From the NCBI RefSeq assembly GCF_030028105.1, contig NC_092388.1:9448508-9512507 (forward strand): a stretch of 64,000 nucleotides of DNA, written 5' to 3'. Below are positions 4,724 to 58,539 of this stretch, piece after piece. The translations under genes and the position numbers were made by a program. Numbering within the stretch: position 1 is the first letter of the stretch; every line of letters begins with the position of its first letter. This stretch comes from Mobula birostris. Taxonomy: Eukaryota. The notes under the pieces were generated by a model. It did no database searches, was not told the DNA's origin, and saw nothing but the letters and a program-made list of their open reading frames with translations.

Positions 4724-5150
4724 GGATTAATGGATTATGAGGACATGTAGTCCTCTTTTATTGTCATTTAGTAATGCATGCATTAAGAAATGATACATTA
4801 TTTCCTCTGGTGTGATATCACAAAACACAGGACAGACCAAGACTGAAAAAAACTGACAAAACCACATAATTATAATATATAGTTACAACAGTGCAACAAT
4901 ACCATAACTTGATGAAGAAGTCCATGAGCACAGTAAAAAGTTCAAAGTTTCTCAAATGTCCCACATCTCAGGCAGACAGGAGAAGGAAGAAAAACTCTCC
5001 CTGCCATGCCGACCACAATCCGACTCTGAGTCATCCGAAAACTTCGAGCTCTGATCAGCTCTCCGACATCGAGTACTGAGCGCCATCTCTGTCCGAACGA
5101 TTCGACCTCCTTCTCGGTCGCCAAAAGCAGGCAAGGCCGGGGATTTTGAA
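4724..5150 (-). mobile_element. 5'-truncated copy of a non-autonomous retroposon (subfamily A, see 27635-28258)
   Basis: Near-identical in reverse complement to the 3' part of 27635-28258; shared spurious ORF MQQYHNLMKKSMSTVKSSK. Confidence 0.75.

Positions 5151-10773: not shown

Positions 10774-10780
<7 letters not shown>

Positions 10781-10832
<52 letters not shown>
10781..10832. repeat. (AC)26 microsatellite expanded within a Penelope pLTR tail
   Basis: Pure AC run replacing the short acacacaca seen in other pLTR copies. Confidence 0.95.
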
Positions 10833-10835
<3 letters not shown>

Positions 10836-10884
10836 GCTGGAGGAACTCAGCAGGTCAGGCAGCATCTCTGGCTTCTCCCCACAG

Positions 10885-16520: not shown

Positions 16521-16959
16521 TTTCATTATTAATTTGACTTGTTAATTCTGATTGACAAAATGTTATCTTATCTGCAGAGTGCTGTTGGGAATTGCCCACA
16601 GCTTATGTCCAGCTAACCTATGGTTTCAGTCTTTAGGGTCGAGATCAAATCTGTCTATCAAAATGTAATAATATTGCTTGACAATGTCTGCTACATTTGG
16701 GTAAGGATGAAGAAAGAATTTGCCTCAATGTTTTTTTTCCCAGTGACTTCAGTACATGCAGACACTTCAAAGCCAATGTGAATTGTAAATGTTTATGGTT
16801 TGCATGTAAGGCAAATAGCAGATAATTTATGCATAAAGACAGATTAAGTAACCAGTTTATTTGTTTTCTTATTGTTGATTGAGGGACTAATGTTGGGCTG
16901 GACAGCAAAATGACACTACTTCTTTGATAAGGAATGTATGATATAGTCCAGATGTGGGT

Positions 16960-17250: not shown

Positions 17251-20200
17251 CAGATACTTTTCCATTCATCTGAACAGATAGATGAAGCCATCATGTAATA
17301 CCCCAACTATATGGTGGCGTTTCAGATAAAGCGGAGCTTCCCCCATGTGTACTGCACTGTGTTTGTAAATTCCTCTACTCAAGTATTTCAATTGGAGGTT
17401 TAAACTTCCAAATCATCTGACTCAGAGGAAAAAAGATGTAAAAAAAAAGCTGACAAATCTGGCTCAGTTACCACAAGATAACCATGCTAATTTTGCCTTG
17501 TGTCAAATCTTAAACTATGTGTCTCTCACTTTATTCAGTGTTCCTGGGATTACTCACTTTTCTACATGGTGGAATAAAGGGCACTTCAAAGCAACATGCA
17601 GTATTTATCATTTCAGAGTCCCTTGGAGAGCAATGCACTGCTATTTCAAAATAGTAACGACTGTCCCATAATGTGTATTTTTTTTTGTGATTGGCTAGAA
17701 CATTTGGTAAAGTAAAAGTTATAATCTCTTCGAAGTAGAGCCGGTGGATTTGCTCTATTGAACATTTCACCTGGTAGAAGCTGAGTGATTGGTATTGTAA
17801 GACACTAAGGTATATTACAATTAATGTCTCTATTGAAAATTCCTGCATAGTACTTGTGTATCTATTTTTGATGCATCTGGTCTCCTGATGATTTCTTAAT
17901 TAACTATCATATTTCAACACAGTGATAAGAACGAAAAATAATTTTCTGTCGCTTAATATATAAAATGCCGGAGGAACTCAGCAAATAGAGAGGCACCTTA
18001 AAAAAAAGGCAATTAAGACTGAACAGTCAACGTTTTGGGCTGATACCCTTCATTAGGATTCCTGCTGAAGGGTCTCGGACCAAAATATTGAGTGTTTACT
18101 GCCTCCATGGATGCTGCTTGGCTTGCTGAGTTTCTCCAGCATTTTGTGTGTGTCGCTCAACATTTCCAGCACCTGCAGAATCTCGTGTATTTATGATTTT
18201 CTGTTGTTCGCTGACATGGAGCTAAACTATTGTCTTCTGTTTCATATTTTCTTTACTGAGTTGTACCTAGGCTGATCCACTTTGAATTCTTTTGAAGGAT
18301 AGCCAGTGGAAGCCATTCCTTTGCAGAGTCAGGAAGTTTAAATAGGTTCACTTTAGCTCAGAATGCAATTGTACAATGGAGAAGACGGCCATTTGCTCCA
18401 TCAAAAGTCATAGTCATAGAAAAATTCAGCACAGAAACAGGCTCTTCTTTGGACTCAGTAGCCATGCATTACATAGTTCTGTGTCATGGACTGAAAACTA
18501 ATGTACCAGATGCAGCATTAGGATGTTTGTTTGTATAAACGGTTTATTTGCCATTGTCAGTCAGTGTCACCTTTACCTTCAGAAGGATGTTTTCTCACTG
18601 TTCACTCAGAAATTCAGGGGTAGATCAGAAATTGCAAGCTATTAGACAGATTAGTGAAAACCGTTGTAAATTTACCTAATTATAAATGGTATTTCAGCAA
18701 TGTATGCATAGAGTCAAAGCCCATCTAATCTGAACTGAGTATTAACTTGCCTAGTCCCATCAATCTGACCTGGACCATAGCCCTCCTAACCATGTACTTA
18801 TCCAAACTTCCCATAAATGTTGCAGGAAACAGTCGAATCTGCATCCACTGCTACCACTGCCTGCTCATTCCACACTCCGACCACCCCCTCAGTGATGAAG
18901 TTACCCCTTAAATATTTCTCCTTGCATCCTTAACCTAGTTCTAGTCTCACCCACCCTCAAAGGAAAAAAAGTTGCTTGCATTTACTCTATCTATACCCTT
19001 CAAAATTTTATATGCCTCTATCAAATCTCCCTTCATGCTCCTATGCTCCAGGGAATAAAATCCAAACCTATTCAAACTTTCCCTAAACACACGCCCCAGC
19101 AACATCCTTGTAATTTGGTTTTGCTACATTCAATGTTCTCCGTAGAAGGAGGCAGAAGATGAATGATTTTCTTTCTTTTTTTAAAAAAAAACTTTTTTGC
19201 TGATAATCACTAAGAACGTTGTTTTGAATCATTCCATTTCATTAAATTTCATTAGCATGTGGGCAACTTGCTGAAGATCCATAATTGAATTAGTTAGCAA
19301 ACGTCAGTAGGATTCTGTTTATCAGTTCATTTAGCAGAATTTCAAAAACTCCACTGAGTTTCAAAGCAGTTGCTTAGAGTAAACCACTAAAGAAATGTAA
19401 TTTCTCTAATTGGCATTGATAATTTTTAATTATTTTCAAATCCGCTTCAAATCAGCTCACATTGAAAGCATCAAAGAGGGCAAGGGAGATGAACCTAAAT
19501 AACTTTCAGTACTGAAAGTGAATTTTGGGCAAAATAATTCAGTCTAGTCATGTTAGAGACAATTAATTAAACAATCAGGGAAATACAGCGATCAAACTAA
19601 TAATGTTTTTATCTTTTTAGATGTCTAATAACATTCTTTTTAAGATTTTAAAAGACTGCTAACTAAAATACAGATATTTTCAGTAACTCATTTCTGTGAT
19701 AATTAGTCTGAAGTTTGTTCTAATGTGGCATTTGCTACATTTGAGAATCTGAGACATTGACTCATAGAATTTTAAATATATCCTACATTTATGGAAATTT
19801 TCATGCTTGTTCAGTACTATGCTTCCTTCCTAGTAGACACTTACCTGCACTGTATATCCCCCGAGTTCGCCAACCCTCCAGTTAATGCCTTGTGAAATCC
19901 TTGCTCCAGGTTGCTCGATCATTGGTGATTGTCCTGTCAGGTACCACGTCCCAAACTCTGGAGTATTTTTGCTAAAATTCACTGCCTCTCCATCTGCTGC
20001 TCTTCAAGATTATTCCTAATATCGATCTAATACTTTTTTCATTTGTATTTAGTTTTTCCTCCATGAGCACCTTGGGCAATGACGCAGATAGATAAATGCA
20101 TATTCTTGTAGACATGCGGATTGGTTTTACTGTTATCCAAACTGTTACCTTTTGTTCATCTACTTGGATCTGCAGATAATCCCTGCAGTTGGAAATGTGC

Positions 20201-22151: not shown

Positions 22152-25100
22152 AATAAAACTTTAGAAGTAAATAATGGAAAAATATTTCTGTAAAGCTGCA
22201 TCACTTGCCAAGGCTGGTCATCAAACTGTCCACATCACTGAGAACTCCAAGCCCCAGCTACCCTCTCAGATGAATTCACCCATCATTTAAACATCAGAAA
22301 TGGGGTTAATAACACTGGCATAATTTATTGGCTGCAGTACAGTGAAATACATAATAAATTACAATAAATCAATTTTAAAAAATAAGCAGTGCAAAAAGAG
22401 AGGAAGAAAAAGTAGTAAGGTAGAGTTCAATGTTTTAGGAACAGCTTCTTTCCCTCTGTCATCAGATTTCTAAACAGACAATGAGCGGTTCATTGCCTAT
22501 TCAGAAATCTGATGGCAGAGGGGGAAAAAGCTGTTCCTAAAATCATTGAGAGTGCGTGTCTGCAGGTTCTTGTACCTTCTCCTTGATAGTAGTAATGAGC
22601 AGAGGGCATATCCTGGGTAATGGGGATCCTTGAGGATGGATGTCCCCTTTTTTGAGGCATGGCCCTTTGAAAACATCCTGAATGCTGGAGAGGCTAGTGA
22701 CCGTGATGGAGCTGGATGAGTTTGCAGCCCCCTGCAGTTTCTTCTGATCCTGTGCAGTGGTCTTTCCATAGCAGATGGTGTTGCAATCAGTTAGAATGCT
22801 CTCATAGTACATATTGTATGTAGAAATTTGCTAGAGTCTTTAGTGACACAACAAATCTCCCCAAACTCCTAAATCCTCCTTTAGTCTGATTCTAAACTGT
22901 AGCCACTCACTGGATGAATAGTTATTCACTGAGCTGTTAATCCTTACGGGTTTAACTAATTCACCAAAATTTAAGAGAACAAGTTTGGCTATAAATGTCA
23001 GAAAAAGAAATGAGTCATGGATTGGACTTAAACCATTTGGAAGAGTTTTTTGTATAAATGCTTTAGTTCTGATGTGTTTTGTGAAAGAAGTTTGGGTTGC
23101 TGCGTGATTCAACGGAGTCCTCAGATTCTTCCCTTTTGTTTAACAATGTTTACTCTCCATTTCGTAAACTGACCCCTCAGTGCTACCTAATCACTCCAGC
23201 TTGCTGATTTACCGGATTTTTTTTTGTTTGAGGATTGGAGCTCACCCAGTGATTGTGGGGAATAGTGGATGGAAATAAAGGCCAGGTGTGGATCAGAGAG
23301 AATGGTGGTTTTAAAACACACACAAAATGGAGGAACTCAGCAGGTCACGCAGCATCAGCGGAAATGAATAAACAGTCGACACTTTGGGCCAAGGCCCTTT
23401 CAGGACCCGTGAAGGGCCTCTGCCTGAAATGTCAACTGCTTATTCCTCTCCATAGATTCTGCTGAGTTGTTGTAGCATTTTGTGTGTTACTCTGGACTTC
23501 CAGCATCTGCAGAATTTCTTGTATTACTGGATATGGAAGGATGAAATAAATAAGTAAATAAATAATACAGAGAACGAGTTGTGGAGACCTTGAAAAGTGA
23601 GCCTGTAGGTTGTGGAATCAGTTTGGTGATGTGGAGAGTAAAGTTATCTATGCCAGCTCAGGAGCCTGATGTTTGTAGGATAATAACTGTTCCTGAACCT
23701 GGTGGTGTGGGACCTAAGGCTTCTGTACCTCCTGCCTGATGATAGCAGGGAGAAGAGAGCTTGGCCTGGATGGTGAGGGTCCTTGATGATGGATGCTATC
23801 ATTAGGACCACCCATTTCCAGCTCTGATCTTGCCTCATTTCAGATATAGTTGAATCCTTTATCCACACCTTCATAACCTTCGGGCTAAACTATTCCAACT
23901 CTCTCCAGCCTAGCCGTATTCATTCTGTTCTCTGTAAGCATGAACACATCCAGGACACGTGCAGGTTTAACTTGTATGAAGTCTCATTTACTCTGTGCTT
24001 GCTGCTCTCTTTTGGCTCTCTGTTAAACATTACTAAAATTTCATCAAATCCTTCTATTGCCTCACCCTGTAAATCTCTCGCCAATTTTTGTTTACTGTCT
24101 ATCTCTCCATGTTATATGAATTCCTCCAGTTTTGGTCAGAGAGTCATAAAATCAGAAAGAATTGCAGAGCAGAAACGGGTCCTCCAGCCCATCTAGCCCA
24201 TGCCAACTTTCTCTTCTGCCTAGTCCCATCTACCTCCACACGGACAATACTCCTCCTGTCCATGTAGCTATACAAATGAACCCGCATCTGCCATTTCCAC
24301 TGGAAGCTCAGTCCACATTTACACCCGTCTCTGAGTGAAGAAGTTCCTGTTCAGATTCTCCTTGAGTAAGGATTTTTGAATTCACTGATGATGTGACGAT
24401 TTTGTATTTTCTTTCTGGCAACTGCCGAGTATGGTTACCTAAGTAATGAAGTCAGTGGCAACTTTGGTTTGTGTGAAATTGCCTTGCTACTGGATAGCAG
24501 CTTTGACTTCAGCAATCTGATTTTTCCTGACTTGGGTTTTGTATTAGTTTTAGTTATAAGTACCAGTTATTTTAAAGATTTCTTTTAAATACATAAATTA
24601 TTCAGGTGAAAATAGCATTGTGACACAGGATGCCTGGAATCAAAAATTGTATGTACAATTAATAAAATACTTTTCATACTTGGTTTTGTTATTGTTCTTC
24701 ACTTTCCAAAATAAACAATATCTTTATTTTATTTAGAGATACAGCACGGTAACAGGCCCTTCCAGTTCAATGAGCTCTCACCACCCAAATACACTTAAGT
24801 AGCCAGCTAAAGTTCTAACCTATAAGCCTTTGAGATGTGAAAGGAAAGCAGAGTCTTGGGAGGAAACCCTTGTGGGCTTGGGGAGAACGTACAAACTCCA
24901 AACAGATTGCAGTGGAAATTGAACCTGGGTCACTGGCACCGTAAAGCAATTGTGTTAACAGCTACATCTCAGCTTACCGACTTGCTGTAACATTTTGGTA
25001 TGTTTGAATCAGTAAATAACCACCGCCAAAATCACATCTTGACTTAGTTGTAACTAAAGAGGGACCAGTGGGTGGGGGGTGTTGGTGGTGAACCTCTGGA

Positions 25101-27634
25101 AATGCAGAATGCCATGAATGTTGAAAGATGTTTGGGTGAGGATATTCCCTTCATCAAGAATTTGTGACTAAACTAAAACTGAGCCATACAAGAGCTATAA
25201 CTGGGGAAAAATTTAAGAGTAACACACAAAAAGCTGGAGAAACTCAGCAGATCAGGCAGCATCTCTGGAAAGGAATAAAGAATTGACATTTCAGTCCTGG
25301 ACCCTTCATCAGAAGCAAGAAAGCTGGCTTCTTCCCCCTTCATTTCTAGTCTTCATGATGAGTCTGTCTGAAATGTCAACTGTTTATTCCATAGGTATCG
25401 CCTGACCTGCTGAGCTCCTCTGGCATTTTGTGTGTGTTACCTTGAACTTGCAGCATCAGCAGACTCTCTTGTGTTTGATTTACTGAGAAATACAGTATAT
25501 AAGTTCTTATTCGCACAGCAAACCTTCATGAGAAAGAGTCCAAGACAATTTTTACTCTCCTGATGCAATTTTTTTTAATAAGTATTCAACACACATTTAA
25601 CATTAAATAATTAACTGCAGTTTCAATTACTATGCTTCCCTACTTAACTTGAATATAATCAGGTAGATTTGCATAATTACATATTTATAATGGTAACACA
25701 TCCCATCTAGCAGAACCTCTTTGAATATTCAATACTGGTGTCTGTTCCAACAACCAGACACCCAAAATATACCTCTTTGTAACAGTGAGGAATGGCTCCA
25801 TGAATAAGCATCTAACTAGAAGGTGCAGTGATTTAAAAACAGACCTGTCCTGAACTGGAACTTTTTCAATGTGCCAGTAACAGCAACATTTGTCTATTAA
25901 CTTCCCCTATGTCCAATGTAAATCTATTATCATAGTATGCCATGTCACCATATACAACACTGTGATTCATTTTCTTGTGGGTATTCACAGAAGAAAGAAA
26001 TGCAATAGAGTCAATGAAAAACTACACACAAACACTGATGAGTAACGGATGTGTAAAGGAAGATGCAGTGCTGTTGTACTGTACCAATTTAAAAAACCAC
26101 AAATAATAATACTGAGAACATGAGTTGTAGAGTCCTTGAGAGTGAGTCCATAGGCTGTGGAATCCGTTCAGTATTGAGGTGAGTAAACTTGTCCACACTG
26201 GTTCCAGAGCCTGAAGGTTGAAGAGTAATGACTAGTTTCAGTAAGACATAATCTCATTGTTAAATTGTGTACAGGTTTTATTTCTTGACTGATTATAACA
26301 ATTATAAGAAGTTTAAAGGTTAACGGATGAATTTGGAATAAAATGTGCGTAAATTCCTAAAGACCGGCATGTAAACAGCATTATAAACAGTGGTTTAAAG
26401 TGTTTACAGTGCAGTGACTGGGTAATAGATAGAGGGGGTGGGGTGGCTAACGAGAATGGTTGATCAGATTAACTGTCTGGGGGAAGAAACAAAGTCCATT
26501 TTTGGTATAAAATAATCAAAGTGATCATAGTGTTGCTCAGCTAGTTATTAAGGTTTTGCCGGTTGGTTTAATAACCAGATGATTGAAGTGAAGTAACTGT
26601 TCTTGAATCCGATAGTGAAGGACTTCAGGCTTCTGTACCTCCTGCCCAATGGTAGCTGTGAGAAGATGGCATAGCCTGGATGGTGGGTATTTTTTGATGA
26701 CAGTTATTGTCACCTTGAGGCAGTGCCTCCTCTAGAAACAACCAGCGGTGGAGAACGCTGTACCCATGCCTATCATGAACTACTCCCTACAACTTCCTAT
26801 GATTCTGTATTGCCCAACCAGACCATGATGTAACCAGTTAGGATATGTTCGACAGTACATCTGTGGAAGTTTGTTACTTGGTGACAAGCCAAACCTTCTT
26901 AACTTTCCATGAAAGCAAAGACACGGATGTGCCTTTGTTATGATTCTATCCGTGTGCTGGGCCCAGAACCGATCATTCAATATGTAAACGCCCAGGAACT
27001 TAAAGCTGCCAATACTCTCCACCCCCAACCCTCCAACGTAGGCTCTGCATGTCCCCCCCCCCCCCTTCCCCTTCCTGAAGTCAACAATTGGTTTTGCAGA
27101 TGTTGTGTGAGAGGTTGCTACAACACCATTGAGTCAGGGCATATTATCCTGCTCCAGTAAGCAGACTCACCGCCACCAGTGATTCATCCAACAACAGGGG
27201 AGGGGGTTGATTTAGTGGCAACAGGCCTATTGGTTTTAAGGAATGTAATAGGATAATGCTGAAAGCATTGGCCATAAGACAAAGGAAGCACAGGTTTCCA
27301 GCAGATGGGCAGTTATTAATATTATAATACTGAATTAAATGATACTACACTTCTAGCAAGAAACCAGACTCAAAGGAAAAGGATTTTAGTGTTATAAGAC
27401 ATAGGAGAAGAATTCAGCCATTCAGCCCATTGTGTCTGCATTATGGCTGACCTACAAATGTTCGTATTTTTCCTCTGAACTCCAGACTTCTCTCCGTGAC
27501 CTTGCACGCCCTGACTAATCAAGAACCAATTTGCTTTAAATCTGTCTTAAATACACCTAATGACTTGGTTTCCACAGCTGCCTGTGGTACCAGATTCACC
27601 AACCTCTGGCTAAAGAAATTCCTCCTTATCTCTG

Positions 27635-28258
27635 CAGGAGGAGAGATAGCAGCACGCCGCGTGTGCACAGCCCTCCAGTGAAAAATGATATCGTATCCGT
27701 TAAATAGGGGCCGTGGACAATTCTGATCTGATGGAGACAGACGTGAAAGCACAGAGGAACATCTGGAGAAATTTCTGAAACGCCAGTTCGCTGCTGTTGT
27801 TACTGCGTGATCTGGAATCTTCCGGAGGGAAGGCCTCAAAATCCCTGGCTTTGCCTGCTGTTGGCAACCGAGATTGAGGTCGAATCGTTCGGATAGAGAT
27901 GGCGCTCAGTACCCGGTGTTGGAGAGCTGATCAGAGGCTCGAAGTTTTTCGGATGACTCAGAGTCGGACTGTGATCGGGCATGGCAGGGAGAGTTCTTCT
28001 TCCTTCTCCCGTCTGCGTGAGATGTGGGACATTTGAGAGACTTTGAACTTTTTACTGTGCTCATGGACTTCTTCATCAAGTTATGGTATTGTTGCACTGT
28101 TGTAAATATATGTTATAATTATGTGGTTTTGTTAGTTTTTTCAGTCTTGATCTGTCCTGTGTTTTGTGATATCACACCGGAGAAAATATTGTATCATTTC
28201 TTAAGGCATGCATTACTAAATGACAATAAAAGAGGACTGTGTGTCTTCATATTCTAAA
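27635..28258 (+). mobile_element. Full-length ~620-bp non-autonomous retroposon (subfamily A) inserted in a CR1 fragment
   Basis: Splits a CR1 3' region at atctctg|ttctaaatgg. Ends aatgacaataaaagaggactg...cttcatattctaa. Homologous to 4724-5150, 55277-55931 and 61150-61834. Confidence 0.8.
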
Positions 28259-38355: not shown

Positions 38356-39429
38356 CCCTAATGGTAGAAGCGACTTGGGACTTTTGGGATATTAAAACTC
38401 CACATCCCGGCTATGTTCTCTTCTCACTTCTTGGGCAGAAGGTATAGGAGCCTTGGGACCCAGCGGGTTCAGGAATAATTACTACCCAACAACCATCGTT
38501 CTCCTGAACCAATGTGAATAACCTCATTCACCTCAACGCTGAACTCACTCAACAACCCACAGATGAGGAAAAACTGCAGATGCTGAAAATCCATGCAACT
38601 TACACACAAAATGCTAGAGGAACTCAGCAGGCCAGGCAGCATCAATGGAAAAGAGTAAACAGTTGACGTTTCGGGCCTGAAATGTCGACTATTTACTCCT
38701 TTTCCATAGATGCTGCCTGGTCTGCTGAATTCCTCCAGCATTTTGTATGCGTTTCCACAACCTATAGGCTCATTTTCAAGGAATTTACAACTCACGTTCT
38801 CAATATTATTTATTTATTTCGCTCAATTTTTCTTCTTCAGCATACTGCTTATTTGTCAGTCTTTGTTTACATATAGTTTTTTCACAAGCTCTGTTGGGTT
38901 TCTTTATTTTCCTGTAAATGCCTGCAAGAAAATGAATCTTAGGGTAGTATAAGGTGACATTAAAGGACTTTGATAATAAATTTACTTTGGCTTTGATTTC
39001 ATTATTAAGTGTATTATGGAAGTACAATTGTGGTGTCTCACTGTTTCAGGTTTGTTGGAAATCTCCAAAGCAAGTTAACATTCTTAAGCCTTCCTTATTC
39101 CATTTGTTCCCTCATTTTTTATAATTGATATAAGATTGGATTCATAACTTTGATTTACACATCAGCCATAAATAACTTATTTGTTTTTTTAAATTTAGAT
39201 ATACAAAGTGATTACAGTCCCTTCTGGCCCAACGAGCTCATACTGTCCCATTATATCCATGTGACTCAGTGTAATTGCCAGTATATCTTTGTAACATAGG
39301 CGGAAACTGGAGCACTAGAGGGAAACCCATGCAGTTTTACATTAAGCTGAGCTTCAAAGCTCTTCAGTCTGATTGGTTCAAATTTCAAAGTACAAAGACA
39401 TTTATTATCTAAGTATGTATACTTTATAC

Positions 39430-40605: not shown

Positions 40606-41890
40606 AGACTCATCTCCTTAAAGGCAGCCACAAAACAAAGAAACTCAACAGAATCAATTAAAACGAAAGAAGACCGCTGAACCAACAAAGTGCAGAGCAA
40701 TAAAATTAAGCAAATAGTGTTCAGAACTGAAATCCATGAAAGTAAATCTACCAGAGCCTGTTAGTTGCAGGCCACAGCCTCAGATCTGTGCAGAGACGAG
40801 TAAACCTCATGGTTAAATTGAGGCATAGTAGTCTGTCCAATGTATTCAGACCTTGGTGTACCTTATCTCCCTCAGTGAGACCGTAGCAGTTCATACTCTC
40901 AGCAGCCTGTTAAAAATTCATGTGCGCAATGTCATGTATAAGTCATTGCAGGTATTGTTAGATGCCTTGTCGCACTAAATCATGGACAAATAATTTAGTT
41001 CAGCACCTGACAATAGCTTCTTTTACAGAAATGAAATTTATGCCATTGCATCAGTAACAGGCTTGAAACAGTAGGTAGTCTACATAATTTAGAATATAGT
41101 GTCTGCATATCCTTTATTTATGTACACAATATGACAAATTCATTTAAGAATGAATTACATTGTCTCTTCCTGATTTGTGTCGACTGATTTAACAAGTTAA
41201 GATGACAGCTTTCACTGCACATCCACATTTACACAGTAAGATTTTTCAAGATTTCAAAGTACATTTATTATTTAAGTACATGTACTATATACAACCTTGA
41301 GATTTGTCTCCTTACGGACAGCCACAAAACAAAAGAACCCATAAATAAAAAGAAGGCTATCGAACACCTAATGTGCAGAGAGGGGAAAAATCATGCAAAC
41401 AGTAAAAGTAAGCAAATAGCATTCAGAACAAAAGTGGGAGTAGGTTGCGGCCTCAGTTCAGCGCAGAGCCGAGTAAACATCGCAGGGCAGCAAGCAGAAC
41501 CAGATCAACCCTCGCCTCTGGTCCCGACACCCTGTCCTTTCAATCTGGCTTGGTGTTTAAGTCATCCAAACATCGGATCATTCCTCGCTCTGGGACCCAG
41601 GCGCTGTCGCTTCGATTCTCAGTATTATTTATTTATTTTGCACATTTGTCAGTCTTTGTTTATGTAAAAATGAACCTTTGAAATTCTATTGGAATTTTTA
41701 TTTATTTGCAGGTACAGCGCAGAACAGGACCCCCTGGCCCTTTGAGCTGTGCTATCCAGTAACCCACCTGTTTAACTCTAGCGCAATGAGAGGACAATTT
41801 ACAATGACCTATTAGCCTACTCACCACATCTTTGGACTGTGGGAGGAAACTGGAACATCCAGAGAAAATCCGCAGGAGAACATACAAACC

Positions 41891-42477
41891 CTTGTGAGTC
41901 TGTTGGGGTCATCTATTGCATCTGGTGCTCCCGGTGCGGCCTCCTCTACATCGGTGAAACCCGATGCAGATTGGGGGACCGCTTCGTCGAGCACCTCTGC
42001 CACAACAGGCAGGTTCTCCGGGTTGCCACCCACTTCAACTCTGCTTTCCATTCCCTTTCGGATATGTCCATACATGGCCTCCTCTACTGCCATGATGAGG
42101 CTAAACTCAGGTTGGAAGAGCAACACCTCATATACCGTCTGGGTAGTCTCCAGCCCCTTGGTATGAACATCAAATTCTCCAACTTCCGGTAATTCCCTCC
42201 TCCCCGCTTCCCCTATCCCAATTTTACTCTGCCCCCTCCCCCAGCAGCCTACTACCTCCCTTATGGTTCCGCTTCCTTCTACTACCCATTGTGCTTTCCC
42301 CTATTCCTTCTTCACCTTTCCTGCCTATCACCTCCCCCACCCCTTTATCTTTCCCCTTACTGGTTTTTCACCTGGAACCTTCCAGCCTTCTCCTTCCCAC
42401 CTTCTTTATAGGGCCTCTGCCCCTTCCCTCTTCAGTCCTGATGAAGGGTTCTGGCCCGAAACATTGACTGATCATTC
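41891..42477 (+). mobile_element. Penelope-like retroelement 3' fragment: GIY-YIG endonuclease end plus pLTR, inserted in a V-SINE
   Basis: Translates CESVGVIYCIWCSRCGLLYIGETRCRLGDRFVEHL...VATHFNS..HSLSDM...RLEEQHLIYRLGSLQPLGMN (VIY-CxxC-YIG GIY-YIG signature), stop at 42192. The host SINE resumes at ccttaaaga ~42478. Confidence 0.92.
42433..42470 (+). ncRNA. Minimal type I hammerhead ribozyme motif (CpG-decayed cleavage triplet)
   Basis: cagtc-CTGATGA-a-gggttctggccc-GAAAC-att-gactg: stem I cagtc/gactg, stem II gggt/gccc. Confidence 0.65.
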
Positions 42478-43570: not shown

Positions 43571-46182
43571 GCTGAGTAGAAGTTAATATAACCTCATTTG
43601 TGATATATAAATGTGAGTATGACAGTCTGAATAATCCTGAAAGCTAAACACACCTTTTAAAAGTATGTGCTTGATTTGAGTACCTAAGCAATTACGCAAA
43701 CTTCATAGTCCATAACTAAACAGCATGAGTGAAGCAAACTCATTTATCCAGTCATCAGTGCCCAGTAAAAACAGGCAACACAGTAGCATAGCGGTTAACA
43801 TAATCGTTTACAGCCTGCCAGCTGTAAAATTGGGGTTCAATTTCCAACGCCGCCTATAAGGAATTTGCATGTTCTCCCTGTGGGTTTCCTCCCACATTCC
43901 AAGGACCTACGGGTTAGGGTTAGTGAGTTGTGAACATGCAATCTTGTTGCTCATAGCAAGTCAACACTTGCAGGCTGACACGCACAGTCCTCGCTGACTT
44001 TATTTGACACAGGATGCATTTATTTTAATGTACATGTGATGAATAAACCTAATTGTTTCTCTTTAAAGAGCCTGAATCATTGCTATTGAGAACCTCAGGT
44101 TTTTTCAGATCTCTCCTTTTCAAAAGTGGTCACATCACATTCCGCTGTGTCCTATAAGACTAAGGAAATGGATGAACAGAAGTGAAGCCACTGAAGTGAA
44201 AATAAATACAGACGAATGGGGGAATGTGCGGGATGCAAATAGTGCAGTAGTTTCTAACGGCCATACCAAATAACCTCAATCCATAGCAACTCACAAAAAA
44301 AATGCTTGAGGATTTCAGCAGGTCAGGCAGTACCTATGGAAAGGAATAAACAGTCCACATGTCTGGGCCGGGGCCCTTCATCAGGACTGGAAAGGAAGGG
44401 GGAATTAGCTAGAACAAGAATTTGGGGGGAGGGGAAGGAGTTCAAGCTGGAAGGCAATAGGTGAAACCAGGTGAGGGGGTAGGTATGCGGGTGGGGGAGG
44501 GAGGATGAAGTGAGAAACTGGGAGGCGATAGGTGGAAAAGGTGACGGGCTGAAGAAGAAGGAATCTGATTGGAGACAAGAGTGGACCATGGGAGAAAAGG
44601 AAGGAGGAGGCGGACCAGAAGAAGGTGAGAAAAAGAGAAGGGGTAAGAGAGAAGCCGGAAGGGGGAATTGAAAAAAGGTGGGGGCTGACTTCCTCCAGTA
44701 TTTTGTCTGTTACTCCAAATTTCCAGCGACTGAAGAACCTCTTGTATTTATTCTATATGTTGTTTGGTCACCATTTCAGGAAGAGCTGATTGTAATCCAC
44801 ACACCAGCTCAGCACATTTCTCTTCCTGTCAGGAATACCGACCTGACAAGAGTGAGTGATTTTATTTATGTTATGCATACTCCAGCTGCATCTCATCAGT
44901 GGTGTTACTCGCACATTGGATTCATTGTTCATCTGTTTATTGTTTTAGCAGTGACAACTTTCCTATCACTATCTTAAACTGGTTCAGGTTTCTCAATTGC
45001 ATTCTCAAATGCTTTCTGCATAGTCCTGACCTCTGGACCCATGTGTGAAAATATTTCTTGTTATCATCCAGCATTTCTGTAAGTTATAACAGTGAACAAT
45101 GAGAGCTAGCAAATGTTCAAAAATAATCAAATCAGATTTAATATCAATGACTTATGTTGTGAAATATGTTTTTTATGTGGCAGCAGTAAGTGTAATACAA
45201 AATTAAAAACTATAAATTACTAAAAGAATATATATGTATATATGTGTTTATTTATAAATTAATATATATTTAAATTAAGTTAAGTAAGTAGTGTGGTAGC
45301 AGTTCATTGCCCATTAAGAAATTTGATGGCAGAGGGGAAGAAGTTGTTCCTAAAACATAGAGTGTGTGTCTTCAGGTTCCTGTACCTCCTCCTTGATGAT
45401 AGCAATGAGAAGGGGGCACATCCTGGGTGATGGGGGCCCTTAATGACGGACGCCATCTTTTTGAGGTATTGCCTTTTGAAGATGTTGTGGATGCTGGAGA
45501 AGGCTAGTGCCCATGATGGAGCTGACTGAGTTCACAACTTCCCGCAGCTTTTTCCGATCCTGGTTTGCATGTACCTCAAATGATCACAGTTGTTGTTAGC
45601 CAGACAACAATGTCTTTGGCCTTGGTATTTGTCTCCCAAGGCAGGAGAGAGTGAGTTGATAGAATTGCCCCTAACCCTGGACACATCTGGTTGCCATTTC
45701 ATAGTGATCTGTTCTGAGGCCACGGGAGAGGTGGAAAAGCTCATCAATATAAATAAATCCCGCGAGCTTCGCAGTTGAATCAGAACCTGCTTCATTATCA
45801 CTAACACATGGCATGAAATTTGCTTTGTGGCAGCGAGACACTGCAAGATAAGATCATTACTATAAGTTACAATAAAAATAAAGAAATTGATAGCACAAAA
45901 GATGAATAGTGCAGTAGTATTCTAGGACCAAACAGAAATCTGATGGTGGAGGGGAGAAACTTTTGCTAAAACATTGAGTGTGGACTTCAGGCTCCTGTTC
46001 CTCCGCTCTGATGGTAGTGATGAGAAGAGGTCATGTCCTGGGTGGTGAGGAGCTTTAATGATGGATGCTGCCTTCTTGTGGCATCACCTTTTGAAGATGT
46101 CTTTGATGGTGTGGAGGGTTGTGCCCATGATGGAGCTGGCTGAGTGTACAGCGTTCCGCAGCCTCTTTCGATCTTGCACATT

Positions 46183-46493
46183 TTTTTTAGGCATCCGTTA
46201 GTCTTGTGAGACCATGGATTTGCACCTTGGAAGGTTTCCAGGGCGCAGGCCTGGGCAAGGTTATATGGAAAACCAGCAGTTGCCCATGCTGCAAATCTCC
46301 CCTCTCCACGCCACTGATGTTGTCCAAGGGAAGGGCACGAGGGCCGATACAGCTTGGCACCGGTGTCATCGCAGAGCAATGTGTGGTTAAGTGCCTTGCT
46401 CAAGGACACAACATGCTGCCTCAGTGAGGCTTAAACTAGCGACCTTCAGATCACTAGACTGACGCCTTAACCACTTGGCCACACGCCAATACA
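46183..46493 (-). mobile_element. tRNA-derived SINE (same head as 30012-30234) inserted in a Rex/Babar fragment
   Basis: Head tggccaagtggttaaggcg...gatctgaaggtcgctag, core gtgtccttgagcaaggcacttaaccac, A-tail. 12-bp TSD atcttgcacatt at 46171-46182 and 46494-46505. Confidence 0.85.
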
Positions 46494-48339
46494 ATCTTGC
46501 ACATTGGAGCCCCCATAACCAGGTATTGATGCAAGCAATCAGAATGATCCCCATAGTACATCAGTAGAAATTTGCTAGAGTCTTTGGTGACTCTTCGGGG
46601 CTTTTTGGGGTTTGCATATATAGCAAACAGCTTCAGCAACTGATTTCAGCCACCAACCTTCAAATATGAATATAGACAGTAGATTAAATGTAAAATGCAG
46701 TTGTGAACAATGGGTTTCTAAAAGCTATGAACCACAGTTAAAGGGAAGATCAGACAATGCTGATTAGAATGCATTTGGATGTCTGGTGTGATTACGAAGC
46801 GGAAGGTTTGAAGTACGTGTGTGTTTCAAAGGAAGCATTGAGGATGCGTTGTAAATATGGAATTGCCCTTTGATCTTTAGCACCTAAAATGCTGTGTAGT
46901 GTTGTATTGAGCAGACTTTTTTTTCCTCCCAAAGAGTCTCAATTATGATGCATGCTGCGTCCACTTAGTCAAATAAAGAGACTATCTACCAGTACTTCTC
47001 TCCAGTGACTTTGCTCACGCTTTAAGAGTGACACACAAAATCTCCTTAAACTCCTAATGAAATATAAGTACTGGCATGCCTCCTTTGTGATTGGTTCAAT
47101 GTGTGTTCTCAGGATAGATCATCTGAGATATTGACGCCCAGGAACTTGAAGCTGCTCGTCCTTTCCAATGAGGACTAGAGTGTGCTCTCCTGACCTTCCC
47201 TTCCTTAAGTCCACAATCAGTTCCTTTGTCTTGCTGACACAGAATGCAAGGTTATTATTGCGACACCACTCAAATGGATGAAAGTCCGCATCCCTGCTTC
47301 CTGAGCACTTCGCGGGTGTTGCACAGAGGAGGGAAGGTCAAGTCAAGGGGAGCAGAAGGCATCACAGGGTGGACTTTCATCTCCTCTTTGTGGCCACTGA
47401 CCTCCTGCAACCAGCCGCCATGTCTCTGTTCTCCCTGTAGCCAATCACGTCGGAACCCATTACCCTTCTGACCCTCCATTCATGGAAACCTTCATATCCA
47501 TCGTTGGGACTGACTAAACTGAGCCAAATGGAAGCTCTGCCTGGGAAATATGGACATCTTTATGCACACAGCAGACCTTCAGAAGAGAACGTCTGTGAGA
47601 CTCTCACTCTCCTGTCACAGTGTTTTATACTTTGCAACATTTCAACGGTTAAGTTCACCTGCTTAGCCTTAATACCTTGAATACAACAGAATTCCATATT
47701 TACAATGGCAGTAAAGATAAAGTGATCTTTAAAGATGCACTTTATTTGTTACATTTACACCAAAACATCGGAACACACAGAGTCAAAGGATGTGCCGGGG
47801 GCAGCCTGCAAGTGTCCAGTGCCAACATAGCATGCTGACAATAAGCCTCACACGCACGTTTTAAGAACGTGGCAGGAAACCAGAGCACCCAGAGAAAACT
47901 CATGCAGTCACTGGAGGAACGCACAGACAGACAGAGGCGAGATTCAAACCCCATCGGTGACTGCTGCCGCAGTAAAACAATTGCGCTAACTGTTACACGT
48001 CTATGCCGCCCCCATGTGCTGTTAGGTATGTCCCCCAAGCAGTACCTCTGAATATTTAATTCTGGTGTCTGTTACAAAAGCTTCTAAGCATAAACTACAG
48101 AACAACACACAATATGCAGCAAGACCTCAGCAAGGTGAGGCAGCATCTATGGAAGTGAATAAAGAGTTGCCATTTCAGGCCAGGACCCTACATCAGGACT
48201 GGAAAGGAATGAGGCAGAAACCAGAATAAGAAGGTTTTTGTAACAGCGTTGAGATACGGCTTCCTGAATATATAACTAATCAAAATGTTAAGTGAGAAAA
48301 CAGATCCTGTCCTGAACTGCGCACTAAGAGACAGGGATA

Positions 48340-49485: not shown

Positions 49486-51446
49486 AGACTTAGTAATGTG
49501 CTAATCCAGGAAATGGTCACCTAATAGTAAACTCAAGAGATTCAGCAGATGCTGGAAGGCCAGACCAACACACGCAAAATGCTGGAGGAACTCAACAGGT
49601 CAGGCAGCATCAACGAAAATTAATAAACTGTCAAAGTTTTGGGCCGAGACTCCTTTTCAGGACTGGAAAGGAAGGGAGGAGACGCCAGAATATAAAAGGT
49701 GGGGGAAGGGAAGAAGGATAGCTGGAAGGGGATAGGAGAAGCTGGGTGGCTGGGGAAGGTCAAGGGCTCGAGAGGAAGGAATCTGATAGGAGAGGACAGT
49801 GGACCTTGTGAGGGGCACCAAGGGGAGGTGATAAGCAGATGGGAAGAGGTAAGAGGCCAGAGTGGGGGATAGAAGAGGGGAGGCAGAGGGAAAGATTTTT
49901 TTACCAGAAGGAAAAATTGATATTTATGGTCACCTATTGCCTTCTCCGATCTCATCCTGAAGTTTTCAATGGCTACCAATTAATGAGAACATTCATCTAC
50001 TGTTTTCCCCTGTGTAGTTTCAATGTGACAGAATCAGAATGCTGCACTAGCCATAGAGTATCATCGGAAGTTAATTTACTTTTTATTTATTTTATTCAGT
50101 GATACAGCACGGTAACAGGCTGTCTTGGCCCTACGAGCCCCAGATAAATTGGAGTTCGATCTTGACCCATTCAGAGTTGTAAACAGGGAGGCAGAGAGAC
50201 ATAAAGTGAAGTAACACACACAAAATGCTGGAGGAACTCAGCAGGTCAGTCAGCATCTATGGAGAGGGATAAACAGCCAATGTTTTGGACCAAGACCCTT
50301 CTTCAGAGACTTCTCCCAGGGCAGAAGTGATAGTAATTCACTCCAAATGTGACTGGAGTAAAGAATAAGGTGGAATTTGCACACTTTTCTGCAAGTTCAG
50401 ATTGGTGCCACCATAGTTTTATGGCTAATACAATGGGGAATGTCAGGGGCCATTTTTTATTAAGAAATTGGTGTGTGCATGAAACGTACTACCAGGGGTG
50501 GTGATACAGGCAGATACATTAGGGACATTTAAGACACTCGTAGATAGACATATGAAGGATAGAAAAATGGAGGGCTAGGTAGGAGTGAAAGCTTATTGGG
50601 GTTTCCAACCTTTTTATGCCATGGACCAATACCACTAAGCATTAGGTAGGTTGGGAACCACAAGGTTAGATTGACTTTAAAGAAGGTTAAAATGCCGGGA
50701 CAACATCGTGGGCCAAAGGGCCTGTACTGTGTTGTGCAGTTCTATGTTCTATGTTCTATCAGGAGTCTTGGAGACTTGCCGAGTTCCTCAAGCGTTTTGT
50801 GTGTGTTGTTGTTCAAGATTTCCAGCATCTGCCGAATCTCTTGTGCTTATGAAGTTAAATAAAACAGCTGTGGACTTGCTGCTGGAAATGTGAACTGTTC
50901 AGCTGTGACCTGACTTGAAGGCCCACTACACCCATTGGAAACGAACAAGGGATTTGTTAACATTCATAAGATCCTGCTCATGATCTTGCCCTTACCTTTC
51001 TTGCTGCTGGTTCATCAACCCTTCTACTAATCATTGTTGGCAAAAAATCGGAAATAGCCGCTTCCCAGATGTAATTCAAGAAACCCTCAGCGTCAGGTCT
51101 GGGAGTTACTTTTCATGCCTTTAGGCAGCTTGGCTACATAGATGATTTTAAAGGTCTTCCAATGTGTGTACAATGTCTTGCACTCTTAAAGGGTCCCGGC
51201 AGCAGAGCATTTCTCCTTTTATCAATGTCTTCTCGGTTCCCCCATGGCTAGAGAAGCAGAGGCTGGAGGAGCAAAATAGGAATACATCTCTGCAGAGCCT
51301 ATTACATTTGCAGGACTGCTGTTGCAAAACTAATTACAGCCAATGAAGTACAGTTGTGAAATATATAGTCATTTTGCTATGGAACAACATGCACAACATG
51401 CTGGAGGAATTCAGTAGGTCGTGCAGCATCTATGGAGGGGAATACA

Positions 51447-51484
51447 CAGTCGACATTTCGGGCTGAGACCCTTCATCAGGACTG
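51447..51484 (-). ncRNA. Minimal type I hammerhead ribozyme, near-intact
   Basis: Minus strand: cagtc-CTGATGA-a-gggtctcagccc-GAAA-t-GTC-gactg. All core nucleotides are present, with a GUC cleavage triplet. Confidence 0.75.
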
Positions 51485-52056
51485 GAAAGGAAGGGGTAGA
51501 AGTCAAAATAAGAAAGTTGACATCCATAGTGAAAATGAAGCAATCAGGGCCAGGGAACTGAAAGTGGTTGAAGAGACTGAGGTTGTCTGAAGTGTCACGG
51601 ATGTAAGTGGGAGGGTTTGATTCAAAGGGGACAAAATGGAGCCAAGGTAAGCGGACACAAGCTCCGTGGGTCAGGAGCAGGCAGAAACAATGGGCCCACC
51701 TGGACAGTCAGTTCAGTGGATCCTGGGTAGAAGGTAGAAACAAGCAGTGCAGGGCAAGAGAACAATGAGGTTGGTGACAGTGGATGGGAGATCTCCAGAG
51801 GTGATAAGGTTGGCCTAATGCACTTTAGTAGGATCCCACTCTTTCAGTTCTATTTTATGATGAAAATCTTGTCAGCCAGTTTTTGCAAGGGGATTCAGAA
51901 CCAGAATCACATGTATGGAGCTCAAAGGCACATTCAACGATTCAGGAATAACTCCTTCCCCTCTGCCATCTGATTTCTGAATGGACATTGAACCCATGAA
52001 TACTATCTCACTTTTTTTTTCCTTTTTTGCACTAAATTTTTAACTTAAATTTTAAA

Positions 52057-53404: not shown

Positions 53405-53980
53405 GCTGGCTGGGTGGGATACGTCTATCCCAGAAGAGGTGTAAGGCACTCCTTCCCTCTGCTAGCCTGCAGGCCACCTTTGGGCAAGGAGTATCACCTG
53501 CTTAGCCCCTCGGTCAGGGTCATGTAAAGCTGTGGGAGCAGGTGGTAGATGCTGGCACGAGCAGCTGGTGCATATCATAAGTCCTGGTTATGTGACCACT
53601 GACACAGACAGATAGTCTCTGAAGAGCATTGATAATGGCTGGTCACAAACAAGAGAAAATCTGCAGCTGCTGGAAATCCAAGCAACACCCACAAAATACT
53701 GGAGGAACTCAGCAGGCCGGGCTGCATCAATGGAAAAGAGTAAGCCGTTGATGTTTCAGGCCGAGACCCTTCATCAGGAGTGTTTACCCTTCTCCGCAGA
53801 TACTGCCTGGCCTGTCGAGTTCCTCCAGCATTTTGTGTGCCTCACCCCCTCTTGTAAAAACACTGCCCAGAAGAAGGCAACGGCAAACTACTGGAGAAAA
53901 ATTTGCCAAGAACAATCGTGGTCACGGAAAAGACGGTGACAACCTGCGTCATACGACAGGGCACATAGTGATGATGATGT
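53405..53980 (+). mobile_element. RTE-dependent SINE-like element interrupted by a Penelope fold-back insert (~53647-53841)
   Basis: Homologous to 30250-30639. Breaks at ggtcac and resumes at ctcacccc; (gat)n tail. Confidence 0.7.
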
Positions 53981-55276
53981 CAACGGTGGAGTAGAAGCAG
54001 GTCCTGGGTCTGGTGTATCTTCTGACTGATGAAAGAGGGAAGAAGAAAGAATCTTAAACACAAGAGATCCTGCAGTTCTGGAAATCCAGAGTAACAGACA
54101 CAAAATGCTGGAGGAACTCAGCAGGTCAGGTAGCATTTATGGAGAGGAATAAAGAGTCGATGTTTTGCCCCAAGATCCTTCATCAGGACCCTGACAATCA
54201 AAGGTGTATCCCTGCCAGTTCAGGACAGGTCTGTTTGGTCACTTAATTTTATGGATAGTTGGATACTCACGGAGCCATCCCTCAACACTGTAACAAAATG
54301 AGTATATTTGTACTCAGAGGCTTTTGGAACAGGCACCAGTATTGAATATTCAAAGGGATTCTGCGATTTGGGATCTGCTACCGTTGCAAATATGTAATTC
54401 TGTAAATTTACTGACTATATTCAAAATGTTAAAGTTATATAGGTACTTATAGCAATTGAAACTGTTAATTGTTTATTGTTATCTTTTTCTCGAAGAAGTA
54501 TAAAATATTGTGTCAGGAGAGTAAGAATCCCTTGGATTTTCCTGAACTCACTCTCTCCTGGAGGTTTGCTGTGTGAATAAAGACTTTTATATTTCCCAGT
54601 TACCTCTTCCATGTGGCTCAATTTTAGTCAGTCACATGAAAGTTCAAGGAACATTTATTATACAACCGTGAGATTTGTCTCCTTACAAGCAGCCACAAAA
54701 CAAAGAAACCCAAAAGAACCAATAAAAAAAGACTGTCAAATACCTAATGTGCAGAGAGAAAAGAAATTGTGCAAATGATACAAGTAAGCATATAGCAATC
54801 AGAACAAAAGTGATGTTGAAGGCACTCTTCCCCTAGTGAGACTAGAGAGGTCAGTTCAGAATAGGGGGCATCTATTAAGGTCAAAGGTGAGCAAGAAGCT
54901 GTCTTCTCAGAGCAGTCACAAATGTCTACGCCACAGGGCCACTGAGGTAAAGTCACTGAAAATATTTATGGTGGAGTTTGGCAAACTCTTGAACTACATG
55001 GGAGTCAAGGAATATCAGACAAGATTAGGTGATGGGTCCTGGTAGCATAGCAGTTGCAGCACTAGTGATCAGGGTTCAATTCCACCACTGTGTGTAAGGA
55101 GATTTTTCGTTCTCCCTGTGATTGCATGAGTTTCCTCTGGGTGCTCCAGTTCCCTCCCACATTCTAAAGACATTCAGGTTAAGATTAGTAAGTTGTGGAC
55201 ATGTTATGTCAGCACTGGAAGAAAGGTAACACTTGCGGGCTGCCTCCAGCGCATGTTCTGATGTACATATTTTTTT

Positions 55277-55931: not shown

Positions 55932-56601
55932 ACGATAAGTAAAGCTAATCTTTATAAAGTTTGGATCAGCCATGATGTTATTGAGAGCAGAAAAAGCTCA
56001 AGAGAGGGAGAAGCCTAATCTTGCTGCTGCTTTTTCTGTTTATATGTGACACTGTTAATGCTATTTATCTGGGCCGTTCATTAGTCTAGGTCACCACTCG
56101 TGTATTTGGGCTCAGACATGCAACATTATCTGACAATGTAGTAAAGGAAGTACAGGTTTCCAGCAGATGGGAAGTCCATAATGTTATAACTCTGAATTAT
56201 ATGACCTTGCACCTTTAGCAAGAAATCACTCTCAAAGGAAAAGGATTTTAATGTTATGACTACAACACTGCAGACATATCCATCCTGTGACAGGGAATGT
56301 AAAAATATTGAATTGAAATTGTACACCTAATCCTGATTGTTTTTAATTCTCATATTCCAGACTAATTTTGTTGAAACATTTTTCAAAAATATGTTTCTCC
56401 AATGGTCCACTCTTCCCTCCTATCTGATTAATTCGTCTTCAGCCTTTTCCCTTTTCCACCTATCACCTCCCAGCTTCTTACTTCATGTCCCCTCTCCACC
56501 CGCCCACCTTCCTCCTCACCTGTCTTCACTCATCACTTGCCAGACTGTACTCCTCTCCTGCCCTGCCCACCTTCTATTCTGGCATCTTCCCCCTTCATTT
56601 C

Positions 56602-56639
56602 CAGTCCTGAAGAAGGATCTCGGCCTGAAACGTTGACTG
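56602..56639 (+). ncRNA. Minimal type I hammerhead ribozyme, near-intact
   Basis: cagtc-CTGAAGA-aggatctcggcct-GAAAC-GTT-gactg: core CUGANGA/GAAA, NUH triplet GUU, palindromic ACGU stem III. Confidence 0.7.
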
Positions 56640-58539
56640 TTTATTTTTCTCCATAGACGCTGCCTGACCTGCTGAGTCCTCCCTAGCATTTTGTGTGTGT
56701 TGCTCTGCATTTCCAACATCTGCAGAATCTCTTGTCTTTGCATTGTTAAAATAATGCTTTTTTTTGGAAAAGTTCAACAACTAAAAGCAAAGTGCTTCTA
56801 AAAGGCCATTAAGATGCAACAAATTTAATATTTTTTTCATTGAACAATTCACTAGCCTGGTTTCAATTGAAAACTCTGTTTTTGGTATCAGTTACTCATT
56901 ATTATAATTATAGTTGAATTTGCCTTGCTTTGTCTAACCACATTATTGATTTTTGCTTTGGACCTCCAAGTTTATCTGAGGTTTTGTATTTCAGGTGGGT
57001 GTTGGACTGATATCCGAACACATTGATTCTTTTTTCATGTCTAGAAATAAATACTACTGTTCATGTGTAAAGGAATGCTTTTCCAAAGAAAATGAAATGC
57101 TGTTTCTTACATAAAAAAAGGATGCAGCTGTTCTGTCGGCTTTAACTTTAATTATCCCATGGTTTCTTTTACAATGACTAACTTATTTGCCAGCTTGTTA
57201 AAGATTCAAGTTGCAAACCTATTAAATGACTTGGATTTTAAATACATTCCTTACAAGAAATGGAACTGGAATCAAAATCAGAATTAGAATCGGAATCAGG
57301 TTTAACATGTCTGGCACAAGTCATGAATGATGCCGTTTTGCAGCAGCAGTACATTGTAATACATCATTTTTAAAAAACTATAAATTACAATAAGAAATGA
57401 GTATATAAAAATAAATTAAATAGTGCAGAAAGAAAGCAAAAAAGAAAAAAAAAGTGAGATAGTGTTTATGGATTCATTGTCCATTCAGAAATCTAAATGG
57501 CAAAGGGGAAGAAGCTTAAGATGCTGAGTGTGTGTCTTCAGGCTTCTGTATCTCCTCCTTGGTGAGAAGAGAGCATGTTCTGGCTGATGGGGGTCTTTAA
57601 GGATTGGATGCCACATTTTTGAGGCAAAGCCTTTTGAAGATGTCCTTGATGCCGGGGAGGCTAGTGTCCATGATGGACCGGGCAGAGTTTGCAACCATCT
57701 GCAGCTTTTTCTGAACCTGTTCAATGGCTTCTCCATACTAGACAGTGATACAACCAGTTAGAATGCTCTCCACAGTACATCTGTAGAACTTTGCGAGAGC
57801 CTTTAGTGACATACCGAGTCATACTAATGACACAAACAAGGTCTGCTTATTGCCAATCCACAATGTGTTCCCTGTTCCTACTGAGGGCAGCAAGAATAAG
57901 CCTGAGAATTCCCGAGCTTTGGAAAGAACAAGGTGAGAGTTGTTCCACAATGACTCCAGCTGGAAAAGGCTGTTCTCCAGATTTAGAGTTATGATTGGGC
58001 CAATTATCCTTGCAACTCCTTCCACAGTTGAAATGCCAAATGCCATTAAGGTGAAAGGTCCTCACCATTAGGTCATGGCCTTGTCTCAGTACTACCATTC
58101 AGGGAGGAGGTACAGGAGCCTGAAGACTCATGCTTGATGCTTCTTCTCTTCCATCAGATTTCTGAATGGCCTATGAACCCATGAACACTACCTTGCTATT
58201 CCTCTCTCATGCCATCTATCTGTCTCTATTGTGACTTAAAGTGATTTTTATGTCCTGCACTGTACTACTGCCACAAATCAACAAGTTTCATGACATATGT
58301 GAGTGATAATAAACGTGAGTCCGATTCTGCCCTTTATTAATAAGATCACTGTCTCCTTTTCCCGCTGCTGAAATTTTTGTGACTGCAAATAGTTAGTTAG
58401 CTGGAATGTTCTGGATTAAAGCCAAGTTTCTATTGACATTATAAAATTGTGTGTTTTGTTCTAATAGCCACTCATTAAAAAAAAATTATTTCTAATAATC
58501 TGCAGGTTGATACACTAACAAGCTCCTTAAGGTCATGGG

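Follow-up and report, generated by a model that had tools for sequence, protein, structure and literature searches.

Penelope-borne hammerhead motifs in Mobula birostris: decayed stubs whose insertion ends point to a mostly uncut RNA template

The 38-base motif scattered throughout a 64,000-nucleotide stretch of Mobula birostris DNA, here called the window, is probably the hammerhead ribozyme carried by the pseudo-LTR (pLTR) of a Neptune-type Penelope-like element (PLE), with decayed and likely inert stubs as its copies in the window. Reverse transcription of the element would likely start about 68 or 102 bases downstream of the cut site and usually pass through an uncut hammerhead. As roughly 0.7 million relics were estimated in the genome, insertion ends could be counted base by base, and the end counts agree with an in vitro study of a green anole element (PMC11167929) with regard to an uncut template, two starts and priming on both strands. 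From the same counts it is predicted that the RNA begins at the ribozyme's front edge; the role of the hammerhead in PLEs has been described as "still unclear" (PMC8557442).

The hammerhead motif and its copies in the window

The sequence check of 51447-51484(-) returned CAGTC CTGATGA A GGGT CTCA GCCC GAAA TGTC GACTG, confirming the motif and the coordinates proposed in a first-pass annotation, and the majority sequence of the family, in the nhmmer matches as in the subfamily references, was identical to the consensus written there. A nhmmer profile built from the window copies yielded 28 matches in the window, which included all sixteen positions that had been listed, four as best copies and twelve as decayed ones. 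By strand, the window copies were divided into 14 plus and 13 minus. Genome-wide, the exact 31-nt motif was matched 1,184 times against 0 with a reversed control, and with a structure descriptor 4 matches were obtained in 790 kb of genome samples, shuffled DNA giving 1 in 3.95 Mb; within the window the descriptor was passed by the copies at 51447 and 42433 only. An Rfam scan of the window returned no hammerhead matches at E<=1, as expected since the motif is devoid of a monomeric stem III.

Five subfamily references share the motif, the old A and A2 and the younger B, C and D. The core CUGANGA and GAAA with a NUH triplet occurred in the majority references A, B, C and D, while stems I and II, the G10.1-C11.1 pair and an unpaired base after A9 were present in all five, and the differences among references were confined to N7, loop II, the outer stem I pair and sites of CpG decay. 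The ACGU palindrome (15.1-16.1), with no stable monomeric helix III, was found in references A, B, C and D and is broken in the copies at 51447 and 42433. The references and the full-length copies support a minimal type I hammerhead borne by a Penelope-like element, stem III being palindromic and without a loop, and the hammerhead is located in both pLTRs of two long loci, L226 and L232.

The class itself had been called known, and minimal type I hammerheads of metazoan PLEs are indeed published (PMC4209133), as are their presence in fish Neptune and Poseidon elements, their thousands of copies and their opposite-strand pairs. The ray motif resembles them in being of type I without monomeric helix III, in its palindromic 15.2-16.2 positions, in the extra unpaired base before stem II and the G10.1-C11.1 pair, and in occurring mostly as single truncated copies with some opposite-strand pairs; stem II, however, measures 4 bp here and 7-8 bp in the schistosome motifs of the same source. 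The term shark was not found in one searched supplement of PMC4209133, and a literature search that took in part of the supplements found no report on ray motif counts or on the front-edge pile-up described below.

No intact hammerhead was found among the window copies. The four copies regarded as the best are all present, but each is damaged. The one at 51447-51484(-), a subfamily A relic with intact core and stems I and II and a predicted cut between 51452 and 51451, carries U at 15.2 (C15.2>U), by which AUGU replaces the ACGU palindrome and a homodimer would form tandem U-G; the entire 5'-truncated insertion around it extends over 51381-51519(-), about -69 to +70 from the cut site, and belongs to the short-tail class. 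The relic at 42433-42470(+), of a younger, C-like subfamily, has A at 16.2 (G16.2>A), which breaks stem III. In the relic at 56602-56639(+), within the insertion 56525-56737, stem II contains an A-C mismatch and the triplet reads GUU, and the copy at 11891, whose relic covers 11886-11923(+) within the insertion 11878-11971, shows C3>U and lacks stem I's 5' strand.

The expectation of a pLTR placed after a GIY-YIG fragment held in part. A sizeable fragment lies upstream of 42433, where an open frame at 41830-42192(+) corresponds, from about 41890 up to its stop codon, to a PLE C-terminal GIY-YIG endonuclease and is followed by a pyrimidine-rich pseudo-LTR (42193-42432, +) running from the ORF stop to the hammerhead and ending in polypyrimidine-CAG. 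The copy at 16423 also carries a decayed piece of the endonuclease C-terminus, situated immediately upstream of the pLTR relic at 16203-16521(+) with its decayed hammerhead near 16425. Most other copies are short stubs. Decayed hammerheads also occur in pLTR relics at 3141-3497(-) (a solo pLTR, hammerhead near 3240), 44276-44467(-) (hammerhead near 44355, with an inverted tail piece at 44683-44749) and 49528-49846(-), and in a stub at 48088-48237(-). Two stubs start at the hammerhead front edge (50210-50307 and 54056-54190, both on the minus strand). Three separate short relics (5202-5311, 5426-5507 and 5632-5742) lie on the plus strand within 5202-5742, an old pLTR/tail relic occupies 10741-11072(-), and 50771-50848(+) is a tail-only fragment. 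Head-to-head stub pairs were recognised at 17958-18192 (one short and one long tail, with a 12-bp target-site-duplication candidate), 23315-23524, 25215-25476, 38567-38756 (junction inside the hammerhead) and 53647-53840 (junction via stem I microhomology), together with an old pair of tail fragments at 9086-9218.

Non-LTR retrozymes, reported in one chondrichthyan, likewise carry a type I hammerhead derived from PLE pLTRs (bioRxiv 10.64898/2026.07.22.740005). However, they are tandem arrays of a fixed unit, whereas the stubs in the window lie dispersed, singly or head-to-head, and differ in their 5' ends, and no retrozyme-type tandem repeats of a fixed unit were found among them. The window copies are ordinary decayed repeats, likely inert, and a host-regulatory role is not indicated.

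Carrier element, copy number and decay

The element comprises a pLTR, a single ORF encoding a reverse transcriptase, a CX3CXXC linker and a GIY-YIG/CCHH endonuclease, and a second pLTR, in a unit of about 3.5 kb. Its ORF likely begins with an ATG some 140 nt beyond the cut site, whereas in the green anole element Poseidon_Ac the ORF starts inside the hammerhead (PMC11167929). Long copies showed the reverse transcriptase motif FLRYIDD, the linker CKRKCYTC, which was found in most of the long copies listed, and two cysteines between GVIY and YIG. Pfam analysis of three long ORFs detected RVT_1 in all three and GIY-YIG in two, mostly under the curated cut-offs, and in the 41830-42192 frame of the window it scored GIY-YIG at 21.9 bits (E 2e-4), just below the cut-off of 22.6. 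The closest named proteins were from Hypanus (81% identical), Mobula (74-76%) and Chiloscyllium and Rhincodon (66-69%), while a PDB sequence search with the element ORF gave 0 matches. A genome-wide first look with the GIY-YIG frame upstream of 42433 returned 168,105 candidates, a figure that does not represent a copy number.

Among 28 long loci examined, direct pLTRs about 3.5 kb apart were observed in L220, L226, L232 and L236. L226 carries two identical intact hammerheads on the same strand at this distance, and a cis dimer is therefore possible in full-length copies; L184 and L185, which also contain same-strand pairs of intact motifs, are not full-length elements. In the published definitions, a CX2-5CxxC linker occurs in Neptune and Nematis and is absent in Penelope/Poseidon (PMC8557442). 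Since linker and domains fit these definitions, the element would belong to Neptune or Nematis, not to Penelope/Poseidon, and Neptune is the clade reported in vertebrates (bioRxiv 10.64898/2026.07.22.740005). The carrier thus appears to be an endonuclease-positive, Neptune-type PLE, with the clade assigned by motifs only. Likeness to the Neptune clade (PMC8557442) extends to the domain order, with the reverse transcriptase followed by the CX2-5CxxC linker and, at the C-terminus, GIY-YIG with CCHH, and to pLTRs, 5' truncation, an inverted 5' copy and an optional tail of 30-40 bp; direct or inverted pLTRs, the optional tail and 5' truncation were all observed in the ray element.

In the pLTR of all subfamilies, helix I shares its 5' strand with a polypyrimidine tract followed by YAG, as for example at 42415-42437 in the window, and this splice-acceptor-like site could capture host splicing. 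Some ray database proteins bearing host-gene names match the element ORF at 74-81%, which hints at exonisation or mis-annotation.

Copy number was evaluated on evenly spaced stretches of large contigs amounting to 880 kb, one of the 89 stretches, made up of N only, being excluded. The sample contained 156 tail-bearing copies, or 177 per Mb, and extrapolation to the 4.0-Gb genome gives the roughly 0.7 million relics mentioned above. The window, located inside a 70.7-Mb contig, and its 200-kb flanks are denser than the sample, with 27 and 64 copies respectively. A genome-wide pattern scan requiring full core, stems and palindrome found 15,665 pattern-intact motifs, about 2% of the relics, in agreement with the very large number anticipated by the first-pass annotation. 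For comparison, about 9,000 copies in Xenopus and 4,000 in coelacanth have been reported (PMC4209133), with a descriptor of that study's own and hence by a method differing from our one-family pattern.

All core tests were passed by 4 of the 160 sampled copies covering the hammerhead and by 0 of 83 in subfamily A. Non-CpG core positions were mismatched in 185 of 1,552 cases (11.9%), compared with 1,182 of 8,836 (13.4%) in the tail, and CpG positions in 34%, showing that inserted copies decay about neutrally and faster at CpG. As CpGs occupy essential positions (C11.1-G12, C15.2-G16.2 and C17-G1.1), copies are disarmed quickly. Between subfamily references, on the other hand, the hammerhead was 87-92% identical, compared with 46-68% for the part upstream of it and 68-90% for the tail. 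About-neutral decay of the copies and conservation of the motif between subfamilies together indicate that selection acts on the replicating element and not on inserted copies.

Insertion ends

The 3' ends of the copies peaked at +65..+72 and +99..+103 from the cut site, defining two tail classes of about +68 and +102, which match the optional tail and the two internal reverse transcription start points of the anole element (PMC11167929). The 5' ends fell at -11..-50 in 125 of 247 copies, with a peak at -31..-40; among non-inverted copies the figure was 73 of 171, the automatic ends of inverted copies being over-extended by the self-similarity of the motif. The 5'-end hazard per nt was 0.031 at -31..-40, 0.004 at 0..-10 and 0.003-0.005 at -51..-200. 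The pile-up is broad (-11 to -50), and a further increase in hazard, to 0.010, was seen at -201..-240, where alignments are terminated by indels of the reference. As the peak fell at the identical sequence position in both tail classes, it is not an effect of length, and 400 simulated uniform truncations, 381 of which were detected, gave no front-edge peak. About 90% of the sampled 5' ends lay 5' of the cut region, and 7 of 30 pattern-intact copies ended exactly at -31..-33. In subfamily B, 88 starts at -31 were counted genome-wide among about 5,800 undecayed copies, corresponding to about 6% after correction, where the denominator is extrapolated from the first 100 matches listed and the capture corrections (0.25 and 0.35) are estimates. 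No shared upstream exon was found at the -31 starts in 20 of 20 loci.

The front edge at about -31/-32, YYAGTCC, resembles the initiator consensus, and its sequence and position suggest that it is likely the element RNA's 5' end. If so, many stubs would represent run-off cDNAs for which no jump to the remainder of the element took place. The D. virilis Penelope is known to have an internal promoter (PMC2377424).

Head-to-head pairs accounted for 76 of the 247 sampled copies and are thus very common here in comparison with the Neptune clade as described in PMC8557442. Analysis of 40 pairs resolved 38, of which 34 paired a long tail with a short one and 21 showed a candidate target duplication of 9-19 bp, while the junction ends of the arms were widely spread, from -72 to +57. 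These pairs suggest that both strands of the cut target were primed, one from each start point. An in vitro precedent is offered by the anole element, which uses two internal sites of its unprocessed RNA to prime both strands (PMC11167929). Poseidon_Ac resembles the ray element in its two internal reverse transcription starts, downstream of the hammerhead and bounding the tail, and in insertion from unprocessed RNA with both strands cut and extended, but belongs to another clade and is devoid of the linker zinc finger (PMC11167929).

Two insertions on different contigs, L109:233-464 and L151:1524-1756, share the same head-to-head junction (arms at -31 and -23, one inserted base) and differ in their target duplications, as would result from a recurrent join or a re-mobilised stub. 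At L251/L252 (G000:C1, about 192.95 Mb), a 31-nt piece beginning from the exact cut site is tandemly duplicated within a head-to-head insertion.

Competing explanations and a proposed mechanism

The ribozyme might cut the element RNA in the animal, a minority of copies then starting after GUC from the cleaved 3' product as fossils of the event, an explanation that we find rather doubtful. Starts in subfamily B were compared at five positions with matched 25-letter patterns, giving 234 at the cut site, 201 at -3, 62 at +3, 169 at +6 and 158 at +10. The cut site was the highest of the five, with no clear spike: its count is 3.8 times the +3 control but merely 1.2-1.5 times the other three, one of which (201 at -3) is inflated by the palindrome centre. 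Set beside 46,920 read-through copies, the 234 starts represent about 1.4%, barely above neighbouring positions. In the first 30 matches at the cut site, G0 is linked to differing partners in about 18 cases, with <=2 nt microhomology, and the opposite arm, too, stops at the cut site in two, whereas about 10 are explained by 3-4 nt microhomology and one by a substitution. Moreover, position 0 was found in only 2 of the 76 resolved head-to-head arms, and in the anole, RNA-seq reads neither started nor ended at the site (PMC11167929). The few cut-site starts and the front-edge pile-up therefore indicate that templates were mostly uncut, although a cleaved and re-ligated (circular) RNA template would look uncut as well. 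The main rival for the pile-up itself is hairpin-driven release, in which the cDNA, after both strands of stem I have been copied, folds into a 38-nt hairpin and either comes off or changes template. The lowest-energy fold predicted for the monomer of an intact copy (-12.7 kcal/mol), an imperfect, long hairpin that stem I closes, speaks in its favour, as does the clustering of ends where stem I is completed and the use of microhomologies inside the motif by many head-to-head junctions; nevertheless, the -31 ends fall two bases short of the full stem I and a sizeable share of ends lies at -11..-28, ahead of any possible hairpin closure, which makes this account unlikely.

A further proposal, put forward by the first-pass annotation, was that near-intact copies contained in host transcripts could associate in trans by their ACGU, host RNA then being cleaved. 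The 15,665 pattern-intact copies and a palindrome that allows an intermolecular stem III would provide the means. In the predicted monomer hairpin, however, the core GAYG pairs with CGUC and the fold is inactive, and predicted energies were -19.9 kcal/mol for the active dimer, as against -25.4 for a pair of inactive monomers and -33.7 for an inactive duplex. The active dimer is thus predicted to lie 5.5 kcal/mol above the two monomers in a nearest-neighbour calculation without tertiary contacts, and trans-cleavage of host RNA is accordingly improbable. These values fit the published activities, as weak cleavage has been described for minimal hammerheads even in tandem-dimer form (PMC4209133) and cleavage by the anole hammerhead is protein-assisted (PMC11167929). 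Considering also the about-neutral decay of the core, the 4 copies in 160 that keep it in full and the lack of intact copies in the window, the proposal is not sustained and we give it very little credit. We are equally sceptical that the stubs form a separate non-autonomous retrozyme or SINE family, or derive from spliced RNA via the acceptor-like site at helix I. Many copies are indeed 105-140-nt hammerhead-plus-tail units, polypyrimidine-YAG overlaps helix I in the subfamily references, and a D. virilis intron ends at helix I (PMC4209133), but the stub 5' ends vary with no common upstream exon, both in the 20 loci considered above and in 30 loci of a further set, and the stubs carry the subfamily tails of full-length elements. 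One splice junction was tried, a self-splicing event that would join a donor-like site where the ORF begins to the helix I acceptor; its one genomic match, with one mismatch, was a chance head-to-head join. In contigs of four sequencing runs guessed to be RNA, 30 of 30 bins were covered and the proposed splice was absent from the joints listed. For this junction, the spliced-RNA reading is largely refuted.

Our preferred reading remains reverse transcription from the two downstream start points through a mostly uncut hammerhead. The element protein would bind the pLTR RNA and cut the target, as suggested by the anole study (PMC11167929); cDNA synthesis would begin at +102 or +68, where the ends are observed, read through the uncut hammerhead and often run off at the front edge, the putative RNA start. 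Priming on both target strands would produce the head-to-head stubs. The ribozyme would serve the element's own RNA, either in cis, dimerising within tandem copies, or with the help of the protein, while monomers would sit in the inactive hairpin.

More speculatively, and with considerable reserve, we suggest that the front strand of the hammerhead doubles as transcription start, the hundreds of thousands of stubs being abortive, strong-stop-like cDNAs, that a dimeric enzyme primes both strands at two points on uncut RNA, and that the small cut-site class reflects occasional cleavage in vivo. If this were true, the genome would preserve a fossil record, readable at base resolution, of how Penelope elements transpose and of the timing of ribozyme firing.

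With regard to host sequences, 134 of 196 candidate frames in the window were scanned, returning a leucine-rich-repeat gene as the sole clear match, and no multi-exon host gene was identified among them. It is represented by one 760-aa open frame at 12994-15276(+), with TRIL (TLR4 interactor with leucine-rich repeats) as best atlas match (score 0.99), and this frame contains no hammerhead copies. A long inverted repeat (hairpin) at 22435-22541 gave weak matches to microRNA families, far under the gathering scores of Rfam, and is probably a transposon remnant because it adjoins a dispersed repeat family. Two tRNA-like stretches, at 46416-46488(-) (28.0 bits) and 7138-7211(+) (25.3 bits), scored just below the Rfam cut-off and are possibly heads of tRNA-derived SINEs. 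Finally, 4733-5149 and 27836-28254 form a young inverted repeat pair, 90-96% complementary and about 23 kb apart, outside the hammerhead family.
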